The notes under the pieces were generated by a model that saw only the letters and a program-made list of their open reading frames with translations, did no database searches and was not told where the DNA came from. DNA of 64,000 nucleotides from an uncultured virus (IMG/VR IMGVR_UViG_3300037961_002446) (Duplodnaviria; Heunggongvirae; Uroviricota; Caudoviricetes): the IMG/VR virus record IMGVR_UViG_3300037961_002446, positions 1-64,000 of that record. One strand, given 5' to 3'. Positions within the stretch are counted from its first letter, which is position 1. Each line of letters opens with the position of its first letter. Positions 1,865 through 38,858 of this stretch are shown piece by piece. Both the position numbers and the translations under genes were made by a program.

Positions 1865-2372
1865 CGTATCATCTCCTTTTTTCTCAAAAAATGTGGCGGA
1901 ATTTATTTGGGACTTGCGTTTTTATTTAGGTTATATGGTTTATATAAACAGAATAAAAAGTTGTTCCTTTAAATCTCCTCCTTTAAATGTTATAAGTTGC
2001 GCCCGTTTTAATTCCTGTTTGTTTAATATGCAAAGTAGTATATCTTTTAACGGTAGTATATTCTCTTTTATCCTTACTGTTGTGTAATAAGGCAAACTAG
2101 AATAAGTCTGCTGTTATCGTTTAAAGAGGCAAATTCAGAACGCATCAATACAACCTAGTTAATGCGATAATGGTCAAGGATATAATGGTATGGGCTTTGA
2201 AGGTTAAAATATTAATCAAAAAGCGCAAACTAAGAGATTTAAAGCCACTCATTTAAACGAATAGAAAAATAAAATTTTTGAAACAAAGCCATATGGTTGG
2301 GTAAAAAATTATACAAGCATATGGTATCGCTTTGCACTACCCTGCCTTTAATAGGACTTACGGGTTGTTCGG

Positions 2373-2522
2373 TTAAAAACCACAAGCCTCATTGAGCAAA
2401 CGCCAATATTCCTCCTGTTCATCATCTGTGAGCATTTCAATGATAGCCGTCCAATCTACGACCTTTAAGTATTCTTCAATTGCTGTATCTTCTAATTCTC
2501 TTATTCTCTTGTGGTTATTCAT
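2373..2522 (-). CDS. Small acidic hypothetical protein (49 aa)
   Basis: Manual translation MNNHKRIRELED...; AGGAGG SD upstream. Confidence 0.65.
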   Translation of the reverse strand: MNNHKRIRELEDTAIEEYLKVVDWTAIIEMLTDDEQEEYWRLLNEACGF

Positions 2523-2536
2523 GTTTATTCCTCCTT

Positions 2537-3247
2537 TCATGAGTGTGCTTTCTTAGCCTCTTTGACACGGTTAATAATGTCGGGAGCGCATTCGCTACGG
2601 CTTTCAGTCTTAGCATCAAAATGGCAATCAATAGATGCATTTTCAACATCATAGCCATACTTCTTAAGTTTCAAACGGCTCTCAACAGTGCCTTGAATCT
2701 TAGCCATGTCGTTCAATACTTGATTGACCATAACTTCCTCAATAGTATCTTTACGCTGAATACCGTTAGGCCTCCATGTAGTTGTGAATTTAAGAATAAC
2801 CCCACTGCTTGAATTACTTAGCCTAACAGTCATCTCCTGTTCGTTATCATAATTGATTTCATAGTCATACCATTTGTATTGCTTTCCTTCAATGTCAAAA
2901 TCAATTTCAACTACGCTACCTTCTACTTCAGTCCACTCTTTAGAGGTTTTTTCTACTTCAGCATCAACAGATTCTAGAGTCAAAAATGGGCTAAACGCAT
3001 CAAAGGCCTCATTTCTATCACTAACATATTTGGTTTCAAATACAACCTTACCGTCCATAACGATTTGATAGGTCTTCTTAGTTTCAGTTTTCTCATTGAA
3101 TCCATATGTAGGTTTGCTACCAAAATGGGTGCGTATGGTGATACCTTTCTTTTGTAGGTCATTGGCAAATTTAGCAAATTGCAGGTCGCCCATCTTCTTA
3201 CCGTAGTTAATCTTCATTGTTCTTACATAGGTTATATCGCTTGACAT
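2537..3247 (-). CDS. Hypothetical protein, cassette 1
   Basis: 236 aa ORF; TATA-like ACCCTATAG about 21-25 nt upstream of the ATG (leaderless arrangement). Confidence 0.8.
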   Translation of the reverse strand: MSSDITYVRTMKINYGKKMGDLQFAKFANDLQKKGITIRTHFGSKPTYGFNEKTETKKTYQIVMDGKVVFETKYVSDRNEAFDAFSPFLTLESVDAEVEKTSKEWTEVEGSVVEIDFDIEGKQYKWYDYEINYDNEQEMTVRLSNSSSGVILKFTTTWRPNGIQRKDTIEEVMVNQVLNDMAKIQGTVESRLKLKKYGYDVENASIDCHFDAKTESRSECAPDIINRVKEAKKAHS

Positions 3248-3364
3248 GGAAGGCTATTCAATTGACACTATAGGGTTGTAATATACAAAGTAATTACAAC
3301 CATATGGTATCGCTTTGTTAAACCCCACTAAGGGGCTACGGTAGGCATTCCGCAGTCTTTAGAT

Positions 3365-3892
3365 TCAAACTTCTTCAGATTCCTCCTCGTTTGCATCTCT
3401 CTCGGCCTTAGTAGGTCGAGGGGTGATTTGAGGCACACCAGCCTTATTCAGTTTACCGTCAAACCTACCGTCTTTGATAGATTGAACCATATATCCATGA
3501 GCCGCACTAACAAAGTGTGCAGTCATTTCTTCCATTGAATCGTAGACTCCGCCTGTGCGCCCGTGTGGAACAATAACGGCTAATAGAGTGTCATGGTATT
3601 CAGTAGGGATTGAAGCAAAAGCAGTTGCTACGGTTTCCTCCACAGTCGCCAATGCAATCTGTTGTTCCTCGTTTAGAGTTGATTCTCGGCCTTTGCGGGC
3701 TGATGGAAAACCTTCCATTGTAGAACCAATTGAACGAATTGCAGTCCAATATGTGCTTCTTAGTTCATCGCTAGCAGCGTTATCTCCCAATGTTAGGGAT
3801 AGCATAACTGCTTGCAGGTTATCGCTTGGGTCTTGCTTTTCAGCCCATGCTCTTACTTTTGCTGTATTTACATTCCAATTTGCTTGTTTCAT
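3365..3892 (-). CDS. Hypothetical early protein, paralog family A copy 1
   Basis: 175 aa; shares LRSTYWTAIRSIGST, ARKGRES and PHGRTGG with 4872-5369. Confidence 0.9.
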   Translation of the reverse strand: MKQANWNVNTAKVRAWAEKQDPSDNLQAVMLSLTLGDNAASDELRSTYWTAIRSIGSTMEGFPSARKGRESTLNEEQQIALATVEETVATAFASIPTEYHDTLLAVIVPHGRTGGVYDSMEEMTAHFVSAAHGYMVQSIKDGRFDGKLNKAGVPQITPRPTKAERDANEEESEEV

Positions 3893-4112
3893 ATTTAATT
3901 CCTCCTTATTTCTAAGATTGCTTCATGCCTACCGAAGCAATAAGGATATTATGAGGAGGTATTTGTAGGGTTGAAAACAAAGCCCAACCATATGGTATTA
4001 CTTTGGTCTAAACCCAATGCGGGGATTGTTTTTTATTTCGGCTATTTGCACATTTACCCTATGCGTGGCTCTCTTACCTGAGCGAAAACAATCAAAAACG
4101 CTCTCCACAGTA

Positions 4113-4412
4113 TCAATGAACTCGTATGAAGCCCCCGTTCCAAGCCTCACCGTTCAAATACCATTGGAAATTTCTTTGGACGATATTAACCCCACTCAAA
4201 CCGTTTAAGCGTTCTTTTGTGGTGTTAGATTGCCACCCGCCATCTTGAATGAATACACCGTTTGAAGTTCTTTCAGCGATTAAGTTCCCATGTAGTAAAA
4301 GACGAACTGAATACTCCTCACCGTCATGACCAACGATTACACGGGTATTACCTCGCTTGAAATTATATCCATTTTCAAAGGCTCTTATTGCATCATATGT
4401 TATTTGTCGCAT
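4113..4412 (-). CDS. Conserved phage-type hypothetical protein (LHGNLIA...GGWQSNTTKERLN)
   Basis: Start reassigned to ATG 4412, about 22 nt after CCCTATATA; motif familiar from early genes of aquatic phages. Confidence 0.8.
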   Translation of the reverse strand: MRQITYDAIRAFENGYNFKRGNTRVIVGHDGEEYSVRLLLHGNLIAERTSNGVFIQDGGWQSNTTKERLNGLSGVNIVQRNFQWYLNGEAWNGGFIRVH

Positions 4413-4502
4413 GGTAAGAGGTTTTTGAGTCAATATATAGGGTTGTAGCAACAAAGCCCTTACAACCATATGGTCATAACTTTGTGAAAGTGGCCATACG
4501 GC

Positions 4503-4760
4503 CTATTCTTCTCCCTCCTCATCTTTCTTATATTCTTCTTCGCAAGTGCATCTATAGCCTTCCCAATGAACCACATTTTCCATGACATAAATATCATATT
4601 CAGCAATATAGACTTCATCTTCAAACTCAATTTTATCCTTAACTTTTTCAGTTATATGATTACATCTAGGGTGGTGGTCTAGTCCATGTTCATCGGTATA
4701 TGCTTCTGCTCCTTCTGCGTAAAACGCATTAAGACAATCTTGACAACTACAAAACGCCAT
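4503..4760 (-). CDS. Acidic Cys/His-rich hypothetical protein
   Basis: 85 aa with CxCxxC, HPRC and CxC motifs; fills cassette 4. Confidence 0.75.
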   Translation of the reverse strand: MAFCSCQDCLNAFYAEGAEAYTDEHGLDHHPRCNHITEKVKDKIEFEDEVYIAEYDIYVMENVVHWEGYRCTCEEEYKKDEEGEE

Positions 4761-4871
4761 ATTAGTCCTTTTTGCTTAGGTTAGATATGGCCGCTAACCA
4801 AAGTATGCAACCATATGGTCATGCTTTGCACTGACCCCAAAAGGGGCTACGGGGGATTATCCGCATTAGAC

Positions 4872-5369
4872 TTACTTAGTAGCCTCCTTTTCTTTTACAG
4901 GCGGTGGAGTCATTTGAGGGATATTACCCTCCATGCTACCGTCCCAACGGTTTTCCTTGTAGCCCTGTGTTAGAGCGTTAAAGGCCTTTTGACCGAATGC
5001 TTCCGCCAAATCTTCAATAGATTCGTATGCGCCACCTGTGCGACCATGCGGAAGAATTACCTTAAGCATAATATCTGCATCAGTAATACCCACAAAGGCA
5101 TCGTAGACCGCATTCCTTACAGAAGTCGCAGACAGCAACACTTCTTCCGGTAATGCTGATTCTCTTCCTTTGCGAGCCATTGGGAAATCTTCAAATGTAG
5201 ACCCAATGCTTCGGATTGCAGTCCAATAAGTAGACCGCAAATCATCGTTATCACAATTGTTTCCTAGAGTAATAGACAATGTAATTGCTTGACCATTATC
5301 GCCTCTATCTTCTTTATCCAACCAAGTTTGGACTTTTGCTATGTTTATATTCCAATTTTCTGCTTTCAT
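4872..5369 (-). CDS. Hypothetical early protein, paralog family A copy 2
   Basis: 165 aa; clear paralog of 3365-3892; AGGAGG SD. Confidence 0.9.
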   Translation of the reverse strand: MKAENWNINIAKVQTWLDKEDRGDNGQAITLSITLGNNCDNDDLRSTYWTAIRSIGSTFEDFPMARKGRESALPEEVLLSATSVRNAVYDAFVGITDADIMLKVILPHGRTGGAYESIEDLAEAFGQKAFNALTQGYKENRWDGSMEGNIPQMTPPPVKEKEATK

Positions 5370-5494
5370 GTTTTTTACCTCCTAAACTATTTCAGTCAGT
5401 ATGCTTCAATCCCCCGAAGCAATAAGTCAAGTCTGAAATCGTATATGGTCGTTGTATGCAAAGCAACCCCAACCATATGGTTGTCCTTTGGCAT

Positions 5495-6066
5495 AACCCC
5501 AAATGGGGGCTACTTGGCAGGGAAAAATCTGCATTGTAATTACTATTGTTATTAATATACCAAGTGCCTTATTTGCTATGCCTCTATCATCGCTTTCTCT
5601 TCGCTTAAGGGCATGAGAATGTAAAAGAAACTCGGCCTACTCCATTCATCTCCGTCTAACTGCTATTTCTTGTTTCCCTGCAATTCGGTATACCTCCTTG
5701 CATTGTTTCCCCATTCCCGTCTTACTGCGTGGTGTTTCGGCTTTGTTTCTCTATGGTTTTATGGCCACTAATAGCCATAGGAATTTGAAAAGGTGGGATA
5801 GTGAATTGGGTATCACTAATGATGATGCGGATTCCGCCCGCATTCGGTTAGGTCGCTCCTTTTATCTAGAAGCCATCACGCCAAGTATATCCAAGTTGAT
5901 AGTTAGACAACTCCCCTTTTGAGGTTCAAGGACTTTCATAGAGCCAATTACCTCACGCTTTTACGCACTAGTAATTGGATATGTCGCACTACACGAATAC
6001 CTGCACATTACCCCCGACCAAGAGGGTATTCTGTCAATCCCTGTCGGCTCATGACTTCCGACATAT
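5495..6066 (-). ncRNA. Putative large structured non-coding RNA (about 570 nt) filling cassette 6
   Basis: No credible ORF. Promoter-like ACCATATACTG (minus strand, about 6081-6091) lies in the same position as in the coding cassettes. Several stems: 5979-5986/6059-6066, 5944-5951/5971-5978, 5825-5830/5838-5843, 5517-5525/5673-5681. Confidence 0.6.
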
Positions 6067-6171
6067 AGGAAGGTGAAAATCAGTATATGGTTCTCTCCTC
6101 CAAAGTTATTCCAACCATATGGTGTTGCTTTGTTTTACACCCTAATAATATATTCTCATTTACCGTTTACC

Positions 6172-6405
6172 ATGTCAAAGAATGCAGTAAGAAGAGTATC
6201 AAGTATTAGCCCATCAATGAAGAAAGAGGTTGAAGAAACCGTTGCTAGTGCAATTTTCACAGATTTGCACATTATGAAAGATGAACCTGATGCTATGATT
6301 GCCCTTATTACTATGGAAGCCATTTATGGTGGCGTTGATGCTGCTATCAAAGAGATTCTTATTGACCGAATGGTTGAAGATATGATGGAGGTCTTATTTA
6401 GTTAA
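6172..6405 (+). CDS. Hypothetical protein (77 aa) in the inverted cassette 7
   Basis: ATG 6172 follows ACCCTAATAATATA (6139-6152), a leaderless arrangement. Confidence 0.7.
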   Translation: MSKNAVRRVSSISPSMKKEVEETVASAIFTDLHIMKDEPDAMIALITMEAIYGGVDAAIKEILIDRMVEDMMEVLFS

Positions 6406-6407
6406 AT

Positions 6408-6590
6408 CACCTCGTCGGGTCTTATGGCCTCAATAACTGAAAGTTGTGAATGCATTAAACAATCTCAATGCCACAGTGCCGAGATGCGGTTGAGATACCG
6501 TATTTTCTATTATTGAAGTCATATATGTTTGAGGTGGGAGGACGCTCCCTTTACAAGGCAGAAAACCTTGACTACCGACACGGGGTTTTA
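6408..6590 (+). ncRNA. Putative structured RNA / 3' element (about 180 nt)
   Basis: Closing pairing CCTCGTCGG...CCGACACGGGG; internal stems CCTCAA/TTGAGG, ATCTCAA/TTGAGAT, GGGAG/CTCCC, CAAGG/CCTTG. Confidence 0.45.
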
Positions 6591-6637
6591 AACAAAGACG
6601 CAACCATATGGTATTGCTTTGTATTTACCACATAGGC

Positions 6638-6928
6638 TTAGGGGCTAAAGCCCTGAGAGATAACCAACAACTGCTCAAGTTTGTGATTTTCAAGTAATAT
6701 CTCTTTGATATATTCCTCTATTTCCTCCCATCTCCAAACTTGCATCTCATAGCCGTTTTGAGTTTGACAACACCATTCAATATAATTGAATATATTATCA
6801 AAGTCATTAATGTCTTTTGGGACGAATTGTTCGCCCTTTTCGTCCCAATAGTCAGGGTTATCACCACAATAACAGTTGAGAGTATTGCACTTAGGGCAAT
6901 CCGTCTTAATTCCAAAGTTGATACTCAT
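6638..6928 (-). CDS. Hypothetical Zn-binding protein (CPKC..CYC)
   Basis: 96 aa; ATGA-coupled to the upstream ORF. Confidence 0.7.
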   Translation of the reverse strand: MSINFGIKTDCPKCNTLNCYCGDNPDYWDEKGEQFVPKDINDFDNIFNYIEWCCQTQNGYEMQVWRWEEIEEYIKEILLENHKLEQLLVISQGFSP

Positions 6929-7110
6929 TCTTCATCTCCTCCAAATATAGCGGGCTTAACATCTGAAACAGGGTGAGCCTTTACCTTGAAACCACCCAAC
7001 GCTAAACTAACCAACTGCATATTGAGCATGGTCTTCATGTCTTCTTTATTGTCAGCCCAAAAATGAGCAACATTGTCCTTAATCATAAAATCAGTTCTTC
7101 CTTTCGGCAT
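6925..7110 (-). CDS. Small hypothetical protein
   Basis: Likely start ATG 7110 (MPKGRTDF) after AGGAGG. Confidence 0.65.
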   Translation of the reverse strand: MPKGRTDFMIKDNVAHFWADNKEDMKTMLNMQLVSLALGGFKVKAHPVSDVKPAIFGGDEE

Positions 7111-7260
7111 ATTTTTTCCTCCTTTTTTCCTTAATACTGCATCTTTCACCAAATTCGGATATTTTTCTCGCAATTACTGATTATTTTCAGAATGGGTCTA
7201 GTAAGGTCAAGACAAAGCACGACCATATGGTAGGATAGGTCAAAAGAAAGCGAGCATTCG

Positions 7261-7750
7261 TTAGACCATATATAAAACGGTGACAACTTTTAGTCTAAGA
7301 TATTACACCCCGTTTCTCATACTTCTCATTTGGGTATCATTCAATTGGGCTTATATGAATAAATATACCATGTTATATCTTATATTATTATATTAATATA
7401 TTATAATGTCCGATGTTTCTCATCAAAAATTCCAAGTGAGAAGAGAATAATCTCCCAAAAAATGACCTAGTTATAGGAATAAGTAATACATTTTTACTAT
7501 TATTCTCATATTTCTCATTTCTCTTCTTCTTCTTCTTCTTTTTACTCTCTCTCCCTATGCCTTAATTATAACTAGGTCAATTTTACCCTACTTATATGGG
7601 AGAGAGGATAATATATATTGATAAGAGTCATGAGAAATGAGAATAATGAGAAAGGTTTGGCTAACTAGGGCAAAATCGTATGAGTTGTCGGGATAACTAG
7701 GTCAAAATTACTTCTCATGCAAAAACGAGAACTATTATGAGAACTATTAG
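7261..7750. other. Putative replication origin (iterons plus AT-rich tract) at the divergent strand switch
   Basis: About 10 TTCTCAT/ATGAGAA copies in both orientations; 4 copies of TAACTAGG[TG]CA (7463 rc, 7569, 7662, 7694); near-pure AT tract 7373-7407; no ORF. Confidence 0.6.
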
Positions 7751-7844
7751 ACAACATTTTCATCACCAAACCCCATTAATTGCTAATAACTAAGGGTAGG
7801 CTTATTAATTCTTTGAGTGAAAATACGGCTTAGTGCCTCTTTTC

Positions 7845-7860
7845 TGAACCCATTTATATA
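7845..7860 (+). promoter_or_regulatory. Archaeal-type promoter TGAACCCATTTATATA
   Basis: TATA box heading the plus-strand arm; the same motif recurs at 15441 and 32386. Confidence 0.7.
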
Positions 7861-7892
7861 GTGTTAAAGATTGTCAAAGATGGTGGAAACAC

Positions 7893-8138
7893 ATGGATAA
7901 CGATGACCCTACAATTAAGGCACTCCAAGAAGGAGCATATTTGTTGTTTGATAAGGAACAGGAATGGTTCACTCATCATTACAATATGGTCGCATTGGCG
8001 AGAGCATTAGTTAATTCAGGACACCTACCCGATATGGACGCACTTCTATATTACATAGAAAAACCATACAAGTGGACTGCTGAATGGGAACATTATGCTG
8101 AATATGGTTACACCCACAACTATGATGAAGGAGAATGA
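7893..8138 (+). CDS. Hypothetical protein
   Basis: 81 aa ORF downstream of the promoter. Confidence 0.7.
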   Translation: MDNDDPTIKALQEGAYLLFDKEQEWFTHHYNMVALARALVNSGHLPDMDALLYYIEKPYKWTAEWEHYAEYGYTHNYDEGE

Positions 8139-8142
8139 TAAA

Positions 8143-8601
8143 ATGAATGATACAGAATGGAATAGCCTCAAGATTGAGGTAAACGAATACCTAGAAGCCG
8201 ATACAAGTTTAGATGCAGGTCTAAAACAGATTTGTGAATTGAATCTAACCATCGGTGATTCTAACCCAAGTGAAAGAGAAGCGGCAAAAGGAGCATTGAA
8301 GGCTCTATTGAAAGGAAGAGATGGAACACCTTTTAGAAAGGGGCAAAAGTCTTCTATCCCTGCTTCGGTAAGAGTTGTAATTGACCAAATAGTTGCAGTA
8401 GTTGAAGAAGCATCAACTGTTTACTTTAACCAAGACCCAATTATCGGTGCTATTACTAAGAAACAAAACAGAAGTGGCGGTGGCTTTTATGCTGATGCAG
8501 AAGAATATGCAAAGGCCGAAGGAAACCGAGCAAGAAACCGTCTAGCCAAGTGGTATAAAGACAAGGAATGGGACGGCAATAAAGATTCACTTCTTTCTTG
8601 A
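8143..8601 (+). CDS. Paralog family A copy 3 (divergent)
   Basis: Aligns with 3365/4872: W..., LTIGD, PFRKGQKSS, NRSGGGFY, WDG. Start moved to ATG 8143 after AGGAG. Confidence 0.8.
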   Translation: MNDTEWNSLKIEVNEYLEADTSLDAGLKQICELNLTIGDSNPSEREAAKGALKALLKGRDGTPFRKGQKSSIPASVRVVIDQIVAVVEEASTVYFNQDPIIGAITKKQNRSGGGFYADAEEYAKAEGNRARNRLAKWYKDKEWDGNKDSLLS

Positions 8602-8900
8602 TGCCTCAGTTCAAGAAAGATATGAAAGAGGTTTGCGAGTAATAAAGATAAAGACATCATGATTAACCTGCAAGGGGGTTTCTCTTTCATAGCCTCCTTT
8701 CTTTTCCTCTTTTATATGATGACCTTGTGAGATGATACCATGAAGATAATTAAGTGTGGCAAGTGTGGTTGTGATTTATACAATGAACACTTCAACACCA
8801 ATGAAGAAACTAACTTAGTGGTTGATGCTGACGATAATGGTAAAATAACCAATATTGAGTTTTGGTGTGCTTCCTGTTTTAGTGGGGAGGGATTAGGCCA

Positions 8901-9149
8901 ATGAGGTTAGTAGAAGAAGTCTATATCAAGGCTGACAAAGATGAAGTTTGTCAGAAATGTGGGGTGGATATACCCAAAGGAAGTAATCACTTACTTGAAA
9001 CCTATATCCATAAGGGAACATTGTTAGTCAATACTTACTGTTTGAGTAAGAAGTGCAACCCCATCAACAATGTCCGACTAAGATTATTTTGGGGTGCAAT
9101 TATTCTCTCGCTCGCTTCATGGGCGGCCTATGGCATATGGTTTAGATGA
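8901..9149 (+). CDS. Zn-finger protein with C-terminal transmembrane helix
   Basis: CQKC...C....C followed by a hydrophobic C-terminus. Confidence 0.7.
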   Translation: MRLVEEVYIKADKDEVCQKCGVDIPKGSNHLLETYIHKGTLLVNTYCLSKKCNPINNVRLRLFWGAIILSLASWAAYGIWFR

Positions 9150-9214
9150 GCAGGTTATCGGTCTATAGACTAGGGCAACCCTGTGGCGGCCACCTATATA
9201 GGGTCGGGCGACCT

Positions 9215-9545
9215 CCCTATTGCTTGAGTAAGTGATAGGTTCTCAATACCTCCATAAATAATAATTGAGAAAATCCTTCAAGTGTTCGGAAAGGGTTGAG
9301 TCAAGGGGCTACTATGAAGTAATGCAACGAAAGTTGCTGACTCCCCTTTCCATCTGTTCACAAAAGTTTTGCAGGAAATTCTGAAAGTTTTCTTAAATGT
9401 GAAGAAAATTTTCTCTCCTGCTGCTTTTTCACACGCATTACCGTTCAGGTAAATAGCGTTTTATTCTTACCGTTAATAGGTAAAACCCGTTTTGATGAGT
9501 CCGGGCTGTCTACAGTATTTAAACCGACAGAAATTTCATCGCAAG
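9215..9545 (+). ncRNA. Putative structured RNA / long 5' leader (about 330 nt)
   Basis: ORF-free, downstream of CCTATATAGGG; stems GGAAAGGG/CCCTTTCC, GAGTCA/TGACTC, GCAAC-GAAA-GTTGC, GCAGGA/TCCTGC. Confidence 0.5.
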
Positions 9546-9556
9546 GAGAGAGAAAA

Positions 9557-9802
9557 ATGGAAGAAATGCTGAACTACTGCGGATTCAATTCCGCATTTGA
9601 TATGATTAAGACCCACTTTACACAAGATGAACTAATGGATTTGTTGAGTGAATTACTACATGAGAACAAAGACATAGCGCAAGAAATCTGTGAAGAGATA
9701 GCATATGATAGTTATGAATGGGTAGATATGGATAAGGTAAGGGCTGATGCTGAAGATATGGCTTATCAGGCTTACAAAGATAGTTTGTTAGGAGATGATT
9801 GA
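9557..9802 (+). CDS. Acidic hypothetical protein
   Basis: 81 aa; AGGAG SD. Confidence 0.7.
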   Translation: MEEMLNYCGFNSAFDMIKTHFTQDELMDLLSELLHENKDIAQEICEEIAYDSYEWVDMDKVRADAEDMAYQAYKDSLLGDD

Positions 9803-12414: not shown

Positions 12415-12711
12415 ATGAATTGTAAAGAATGTAATGGAGCAGGTTGGGTAGAAGTGCCTAACTATCATTTAGACTGCATGGAATGGCAACAATGTCATTC
12501 TTGTTTAGCAGAAGAACATTATCATAAAGAACTTGAAGAAGGGCTAACTAAGTTGTTAGTCAATGCGAGTCATGAAAGGTTAGCGCAAATAGTTGCTACC
12601 TTGTTAGTGAGGAATGTATCACGCAATCCTCAAGATAGTCTGGATAGGTTAGAAACTATCATACAGACAAAAAACACACTTGAAGCGATACAAATTGCTT
12701 CATTTATCTAG
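12415..12711 (+). CDS. Protein with DnaJ-type Zn-finger motif
   Basis: CKECNGAG...CHSC. Confidence 0.65.
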   Translation: MNCKECNGAGWVEVPNYHLDCMEWQQCHSCLAEEHYHKELEEGLTKLLVNASHERLAQIVATLLVRNVSRNPQDSLDRLETIIQTKNTLEAIQIASFI

Positions 12712-12782
12712 GGCGTATGGTGTAATGGATAGCATTTCGGCCTTCTAAGCCGAAGATGGGGGTTCAATTCCCTCTACGCCTG
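12711..12782 (+). tRNA. tRNA-Arg (anticodon TCT)
   Basis: Acceptor stem GGGCGTA/TACGCCT, anticodon arm TCGGC-CTTCTAA-GCCGA, T-loop GTTCAATTC; no intron and no encoded CCA. Confidence 0.93.
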
Positions 12783-38270: not shown

Positions 38271-38858
38271 ATGGGGTGTGTTTATTTTGTTAAACATAAG
38301 GGATTAGACCCTATTAAAATAGGAATGTCTACCTACAACAATCCTTTTCATAGGGTAGTAGATATGGAAGTTGCTAGTCCTTTTGGCATAGAATTATTAG
38401 GGTTTATTAAAACTGACAATCCCCTAAAATTAGAAAAAAAATATCATTCTAAATTTAGTTCTTCATGTATCAAAGGTGAATGGTTTTCTATACCAATAGA
38501 ACAAGTATATTCTATACTAGAATACCATAATGGTAAAAATGTAATGTCACAAATTGCTGCTTTAATTGAAGAACTAGAAATTTCTCCTAGAGAAGCACTT
38601 GAATTAATTGCGAAACAAAGAAAAGGTTTTCATGTTGATGTTGATGTTCACAATGCTTTTAGGAACATTTATTCTGATTTAGTAAAAACTACTAATTCAA
38701 GGTGGGTTTCCAAAAAAGAACTAATAGACCAATATTGTAAAAAGGTTAGGCGAAGTAAGGCGCAAGCATACAGACATTTTAAAAAAATAGAAAATACTTT
38801 TTTAACTCATAGTAAAAACAGAAAAACACTTATCAAAGCAAAGGAGATGAAAATATGA
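38271..38858 (+). CDS. T5orf172/MUG113 (GIY-YIG-like) nuclease domain fused to a winged helix
   Basis: GCVYFV...IKIG.S...R...LE...H..F......GEWF; inserted between the polB halves. Confidence 0.8.
   Translation: MGCVYFVKHKGLDPIKIGMSTYNNPFHRVVDMEVASPFGIELLGFIKTDNPLKLEKKYHSKFSSSCIKGEWFSIPIEQVYSILEYHNGKNVMSQIAALIEELEISPREALELIAKQRKGFHVDVDVHNAFRNIYSDLVKTTNSRWVSKKELIDQYCKKVRRSKAQAYRHFKKIENTFLTHSKNRKTLIKAKEMKI

Follow-up and report, generated by a model that had tools for sequence, protein, structure and literature searches.

The locus considered here lies in a window of 64,000 bases, i.e. the first part of a virus record of 94,178 bases (IMG/VR IMGVR_UViG_3300037961_002446) whose ends overlap, and fills the space between two palindromic junctions (Table 1). 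The 8-base core of this junction occurs in nine copies, all within 2289-7230 and none elsewhere in the genome, and its full matches all fall between 3286 and 6621. The nine cores bound cassettes, each with a promoter-like motif (recognised by eye after six of the nine junctions) and often with an end hairpin. The same junction pattern is found in at least about 100 related viral records among the matches listed and could be either an operator or a recombination site.

The cassette and its carrier virus

In this cassette, 59 nt separate the junction core from the first helix, and in two neighbouring cassettes the start codons stand at 58 and 60 nt. A preliminary description, made from the letters alone, had proposed that the whole cassette is devoted to a structured non-coding RNA of about 570 nt; every feature it listed was found where it had been placed, and its interpretation is supported in part. 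The promoter-like motif and the end hairpin are indeed present, the predicted transcript start holds to within a few bases, and no credible ORF is seen, ATG-started frames reaching at most 30 aa (minus strand) and 53 aa (plus strand). The pentamer GAAAC, rightly described as repeated, occurs in four copies against about one expected per 572 nt at the rate of the window, two of them belonging to module II (closing helix and internal loop); a reading of these repeats as a self-cleaving, hammerhead-like ribozyme was dropped, as no Rfam model of this kind matched. The folding energy gives z = -1.70 for the minus strand and +0.15 for the plus strand (by module, -1.84, -1.05 and -0.60), so that the thermodynamic case for an RNA is weak and it is the covariation that carries the case.

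Table 1. Features of the RNA cassette, in the 5' to 3' direction of the minus strand (positions in the window)
Feature	Position	Strand	Basis or remark
Upstream palindromic junction, operator-like	6101-6132		One of seven full matches in the genome
Promoter-like motif	6081-6091	-	Transcript start predicted near 6066-6063
Module I, enlarged manA-type core, 16 nested helices	5792-6063	-	RF01745 match, covariation, RNA contigs
Loop of hairpin 3, non-nested contact with 5854-5851	6016-6019	-	Covariation, permutation test
Loop 5, kissing loop with loop 7	5988-5991	-	Covariation, permutation test
Loop 7, partner of loop 5	5900-5903	-	Covariation, permutation test
Self-complementary hexamer, added hairpin of module I	5865-5870	-	Palindrome kept among variants
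Partner strand of the loop 3 contact	5851-5854	-	Covariation, permutation test
Module II, small hairpin with invariant palindrome (5767-5762), then irregular rod closed by covarying helices	5627-5784	-	
Apical 8-nt palindrome of module II	5687-5694	-	Palindrome scan of module II cores
Module III, short hairpin with conserved purine-rich loop	5578-5614	-	11 of 28 cassettes
Module IV, helix round an A-rich stretch ending in an invariant pyrimidine run	5508-5568	-	14 of 28 cassettes
End hairpin of the cassette	5497-5508	-	Similar hairpins before other junctions
Downstream palindromic junction	5459-5490		Junction scan

Regarding the carrier, Pfam identifies in the window a PolB, a Cpn60 chaperonin, an ATP-dependent ligase and a clamp-loader AAA ATPase, as well as a TFIIB ribbon below cut-off; a ribonucleotide reductase and the second half of PolB were read by eye, and a tRNA-Arg (12711-12782) is the only tRNA called in the window by ARAGORN. 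The traits of group B magroviruses (PMC5434244) and Aoguangviridae (PMC10768690) used for comparison are a genome of 90-100 kb, a split PolB, a GroEL-type chaperonin, a ribonucleotide reductase, a clamp loader, a ligase, a TFB and a tRNA-Arg. This trait set is found in the carrier (94,178 bases, split PolB, tRNA-Arg, etc.). The window looks like a group B magrovirus, a virus of marine Poseidoniales archaea, and an archaeal host would follow from these magrovirus-like traits. The one match in a search of genome contigs, 4 kb long, belongs to a bacterial MAG and is probably a misbinned contig, and blastn of the whole stretch against named phages returned nothing beyond two 31-base chance matches.

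Several other elements were noted in and around the array. An inverted repeat (3335-3359/3914-3938) pairs the leader with the trailer of a 175-aa gene, of which the 165-aa gene next to the RNA (5369-4872) is a paralogue with a similar leader, RNA contigs being present on both; a search for related loci with the 165-aa protein yielded none. The gene of the 4113-4469 cassette matches Pfam PF23790 (Kyanoviridae Gp96, E 2e-20), a second array element shared with cyanophages. The non-coding, A+T-rich stretch 7440-7750, with inverted repeats and a change of sign in GC skew, is a candidate origin, and the two PolB halves have a 195-aa ORF (38271-38858) between them.

A small share of the stretch is present in 20 RNA runs from 15 studies. 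Contig coverage was looked at in four RNA runs from three studies over 2201-9700 (7.5 kb, 30 bins): module I contigs occur in all four, two of which cover nothing else in these 7.5 kb, and two to seven bins are covered, the covered remainder corresponding to three ORF cassettes. Two module I contigs have the exact sequence of the window along 175 and 137 nt, and one contig from a relative continues 67 nt into module II. Contigs from two studies end at 5792 and 5791, just past the closing helix and with no loose ends, a weak hint of a 3' end. Between 5451 and 5700 the four runs have no RNA contig, contigs showing presence only and being no evidence of absence. These contigs, which come from runs chosen for containing the stretch, give neither strand nor level nor true ends.

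Module I and its kinship with manA

At gathering level, Rfam reports the tRNA alone in the window. Under relaxed filters, a full-length match to manA (RF01745, model 1-192) appears at 6063-5790 with 41.9 bits (E 3.2e-9) and inserts of 87 and 40 nt, a score below the gathering cut-off of 55.2 bits that does not confer membership; a filtered RF01745 search of the virus's own genome gives no match. The manA core structure and its conserved linkers are present over the whole model. Among 18 cassette loci scanned with the manA model, four exceed the cut-off (L304, 86.1 bits; L303, 84.7; L305, 64.4; L301, 62.5) and five more score below it. The passing homologues occupy the same cassette position as the window RNA, and three of the four records have primase-like and PolB genes in common with the window (41-73% identity), the fourth, 60% complete, having neither gene. 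Reciprocally, a model built from the alignment of 15 cores, R1, matches cyanophage manA at E 9.6e-11 and 1.6e-6, the two RNAs scoring 141.7 and 122 bits as manA; the copy of L276 is identical to that of phage P-TIM40. Passing, sub-cut-off and reciprocal matches together indicate that the window copy is a long form of a continuous family rather than a member by score. Module I is, with high probability, a manA relative, and the preliminary description erred in finding no known family, as the 5' half ties to manA.

The manA motif was reported as a probable riboswitch in marine metagenomes, cyanophages and gamma-proteobacteria (PMC2864571; PMC9964418), where it lies in potential 5' UTRs (PMC2864571). 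The likeness of the window RNA to manA extends to the order of helices, the linker after the closing helix, the sequences and complementarity of loops 5 and 7, and the 3' end. By contrast, manA measures 192 nt whereas the window core reaches about 272 nt, its inserts turning two arms into three-way junctions; the window RNA also has added palindromic loops and up to three following modules without Rfam match. Besides, manA is known from cyanophages and Photobacterium while the window RNA would come from an archaeal virus, and manA precedes a gene while the window RNA fills its own cassette. It does not lie in a potential 5' UTR of a metabolic gene, the next gene standing behind a junction. Of note, a manA-like RNA of about 390 nt in L025 (593-982) has its core apparently doubled in tandem under one closing helix, as do RNAs in L028, L002, L013, L019, L041 and L049, with no junction motif; in L025 and L028 a tRNA then follows.

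For module I, RNAalifold proposes 82 pairs, 58 with two-sided change. In the structure drawn here, which has 81 pairs including two non-nested helices, 95.9% of cells are paired and 57 pairs change on both sides in 15 homologues, counts that are inflated by the relatedness of the sequences. None of 500 shuffles reaches any of these measures and slid controls attain 37-44%, a comparison in which the drawing of the structure from the window sequence favours it over the slid controls. Up to four pair types per column are hard to get from kinship or drawing bias. The locus almost certainly encodes a structured RNA, and the proposal of a conserved, protein-free RNA cassette, for which covariation had been named as a check, is upheld. 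A tree of 31 cores, in which long branches meet and the deep branches stay open, supports no claim on donor or direction.

The individual pairings put forward beforehand fare unequally. The hairpins at 5944-5978 and 5825-5843 correspond to helices 10 and 17, which both covary, helix 10 being only 82.6% paired, and for the hairpin at 5751-5780, the first of module II, the outer register is supported (three of six pairs two-sided) but the inner one has no two-sided change. The 5' end does have its 8-base complement at 5986-5979, but the pairing of the two finds no support (79% paired, one of seven pairs two-sided, 342 of 500 shuffles as high) and competes with better supported helices. Likewise, the 9-bp pair 5517-5525/5673-5681 is present in the window but has its partner in only four of the 14 homologues having the 3' half, and the duplicated module (5711-5728 and 5642-5663) does consist of two similar segments, only partly kept in homologues.

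The loci recovered by motif scans numbered 60, at least 203, 8 and 11, long matches making up three of the first 60. The R1 model was searched in 95 of 105 records, drawn from among the junction and motif matches listed, and found one match in 24 of them (14 of 32 near-complete records) and two in none. The distance from a junction core to the start of the match is 52-65 nt in all but one of the 24 cases, an ORF of 50 aa is absent from the cassette tail in 22, and the first downstream ORFs fall into 21 clusters among 28 loci. This distribution, together with the varied ORFs downstream, makes the RNA a cassette that is common but dispensable and followed by no particular gene, and such a position at the cassette start, with no conserved gene following, counts against the cis-regulatory label of manA here.

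Loop contacts, palindromes and additional modules

Two contacts of module I are not nested. For the loop of hairpin 3, all four pairs with the eighth-arm strand change on both sides, and in alignment A5, fitted without pseudoknots, 5-7 bp form in 18 of 22 distinct loop pairs (one dropped), with a mean energy of -5.75 kcal/mol for own partners against -1.54 for permuted ones and none of 10,000 permutations as stable; four divergent homologues form only 2-3 bp. The loop 5-loop 7 contact is 94.9% paired with one of four pairs two-sided, and the loops change together (UAGU/ACUA, UGGU/ACCA, UUGU/ACAA); its energy, -2.83 against -2.10 permuted with 97 of 10,000 as stable over 13 of 18 pairs (five dropped for gaps), is a modest test, the sequences being related. 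In L302, and by eye in L294 and L295, the same loop stands at both the loop 5 and loop 7 places.

According to a 2026 cryo-EM preprint, pentamers of manA are held together either by the contacts L5-L7' and L8-L9' or by L5-L7', L3-L8' and a GNRA contact, and they build 8-, 10- and 60-mers, the oligomers being made in vitro at about 3 mg/mL; the words 'archaea' and 'in vivo' do not occur in its text, and the sections drawn on here give no in vivo role for manA (bioRxiv 10.64898/2026.07.01.735769). Both features, i.e. complementary loops 5 and 7 and a loop 3 contact with the eighth arm, are found in the window RNA, and the two covarying contacts appear to match the kissing loops of the manA pentamers, the loop numbers and the matching being read from the preprint text. 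By analogy with these structures the contacts may join separate molecules, the covariation fitting intra- and intermolecular contacts alike, and the inserts of module I could alter the geometry of a manA-type oligomer. That the RNA oligomerises by these loops is considered somewhat probable.

Palindromic loops are a further trait of these cassettes. The added hairpin of module I has a palindrome of 6-10 nt, of several sequences, in 17 of 26 distinct variants. In module II, the closing helices (eight of 14 pairs two-sided in 12 sequences) surround a GAAA/AGUA internal loop, which we take to be a loop E motif. Every distinct core caught by the pattern, 14 in all, has a palindrome of 6-14 nt, located at offset 48-58 in 13 cases, and five central hexamers are represented among them. 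Such palindromes number 0.0073 per base in the genome background, or about 0.08 per 11-base window, and whole cassettes are at only 1.5 times the genome rate. A palindrome that changes its sequence yet remains self-complementary fits pairing between twin RNAs better than recognition of DNA by a protein. Retroviral dimerisation-initiation loops similarly expose an apical self-complementary hexamer, which may differ between lineages yet stays palindromic; the analogy is one of mechanism, with no homology claimed.

The 28 cassettes (246-786 nt) contain module II in 16 cases, module III in 11 and module IV in 14, combined as I+II+III+IV (eight), I+III+IV (three), I+II+IV (three), I+II (five) or module I with another or no tail (nine). 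Wherever modules co-occur their order is constant, and pyrimidine runs separate them. Modules II to IV have no Rfam match in the window or the homologues scanned. The closing helix of module IV forms, with different sequences, in all 14 carriers; RNAalifold finds no covarying pair in modules III-IV because MAFFT leaves the variable helix unaligned, and module III, where RNAalifold sees no two-sided change, has a weakly supported fold. The conserved structured RNA of the preliminary description is retained, though a single fixed molecule of 570 nt does not follow, the locus being modular. As additional observations, module II also occurs alone behind protein genes of other cassettes (L072, 4167-4353; L113, 4209-4025), and behind a short-form manA, L303 and L304 have structured tails of another kind (584 and 343 nt), with palindromic loops and no Rfam match.

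Possible functions of the RNA

A DNA-level element or a decayed protein gene is largely refuted by the covariation of module I and is extremely improbable: an array full of palindromic DNA junctions and the weak fold z-score would suit it, but the pairs include many G-U in the sense of one strand, the helices are branched and contacts non-nested, RNA contigs are present, and the homologues have no shared ORF, which had been named beforehand as the sign of a decayed gene. A cis-acting leader or riboswitch controlling read-through into the next cassette, that of the 165-aa gene, would agree with manA having been described as a probable riboswitch in potential 5' UTRs, at least in the sections consulted (PMC2864571), with a pyrimidine run of module IV that, by eye and without covariation, could pair with the 5' strand of the module I closing helix, and with the seven of 28 loci in which, at a 45-aa limit, an ORF starts before the next junction. 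It is nevertheless quite unlikely, given that an end hairpin, a junction and a second promoter-like motif stand before the next gene, that the downstream ORFs are mostly unrelated, and that in L295 and L301 the next junction follows after as little as 19 and 39 nt.

The same covariation data would also fit a stand-alone monomer in which the loop contacts are internal pseudoknots and which binds a protein or mimics a protein's substrate; the three-base tail conserved after the closing helix across alignment A5 and the contig stops at 5792 and 5791 go in this direction. The last hairpin, the closing helix and this tail loosely recall, in our view, the top half of a tRNA, but the stacked helices measure 10 bp instead of 12, ARAGORN reports neither a tRNA nor a tmRNA at the locus, and palindromes that vary yet stay self-complementary are left unexplained, so that a monomer is rather unlikely. 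With close to an even chance, the cassette could instead yield a precursor of several small RNAs with separate jobs, of which only module I is manA-like and for which 570 nt is not the functional unit. Modules that come and go as blocks in the 28 cassettes, module II standing behind protein genes without module I and the pyrimidine runs between modules argue for such a precursor, the constant module order and the lack of an identified processing site or enzyme against it; for module I it is compatible with the preferred reading.

The best reading, held with moderate confidence, is that of a stand-alone, early RNA that oligomerises. Comparison across the homologues establishes the first 272 nt as an enlarged manA-type core with compensatory loop contacts, followed by optional modules and with no tied gene, and the RNA likely acts in trans. 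Its gene, a non-coding RNA unit standing on its own among the swappable cassettes of a magrovirus, would be transcribed early from the cassette promoter, and the core would be released as a stable RNA of about 272 nt, either out of a longer transcript or because transcription partly terminates at the U-run that follows. As suggested by the manA structures, the two loop contacts might then form between molecules, giving rings or closed oligomers, and the palindromic loops might pair with their twins on other copies to add links. In the least certain step, the assembly could present a host protein with a multivalent scaffold or decoy, resistant to nucleases, during take-over. The decoy role is put forward tentatively; the place among swappable small genes may fit a role in host take-over or counter-defence.

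The comparison with ornate phage RNAs made at the outset is a fair analogy. Like the window RNA, ROOL and GOLLD, taken as comparison RNAs from the pertinent part of PMC12286853, are large and virus-borne, of unknown function and with a protein-free oligomer as working idea, have a modular variable region and are absent from many relatives. Their fold is different, however, and the window RNA is not beside tRNA genes, the only tRNA lying at 12711; models of ROOL, GOLLD and OLE give no match at E up to 10 in 5300-6300, nor in the homologues, and ROOL and GOLLD may be seen as analogues only. A literature search on magrovirus non-coding RNA and archaeal-virus structured non-coding RNA found no paper on such RNAs in magroviruses, non-coding RNA terms do not occur in PMC11706807, and five motifs were not found in six supplementary files of the viral structured-RNA survey PMC10690425 (files 1, 2 and 4 lying outside the search). 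These three files, or the sequence tables of the manA preprint, could contain these RNAs, and the full manA list of Rfam may already include unrecognised magrovirus copies.

In a broader and rather doubtful view, the RNA would be a multivalent building block whose core forms rings or cages, whose palindromes cross-link copies into a lattice or condensate in the archaeal cell and whose modules tune valence, manA in general then being a trans-acting assembly RNA of bacterial and archaeal viruses rather than a riboswitch. Up to now manA is classed as a cis-regulatory riboswitch candidate, its cages having recently been shown in vitro, as stated in the sections of the preprint drawn on (bioRxiv 10.64898/2026.07.01.735769). 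Here, manA relatives occur as stand-alone genes in viruses that would belong to another domain of life. The retention of cage-like loop contacts by compensatory change suggests selection on these contacts and, in stand-alone manA relatives, argues against an obligatory cis role. Besides, the roughly 30 natural variants, with and without modules, offer a panel for testing what sets the size of the oligomer.
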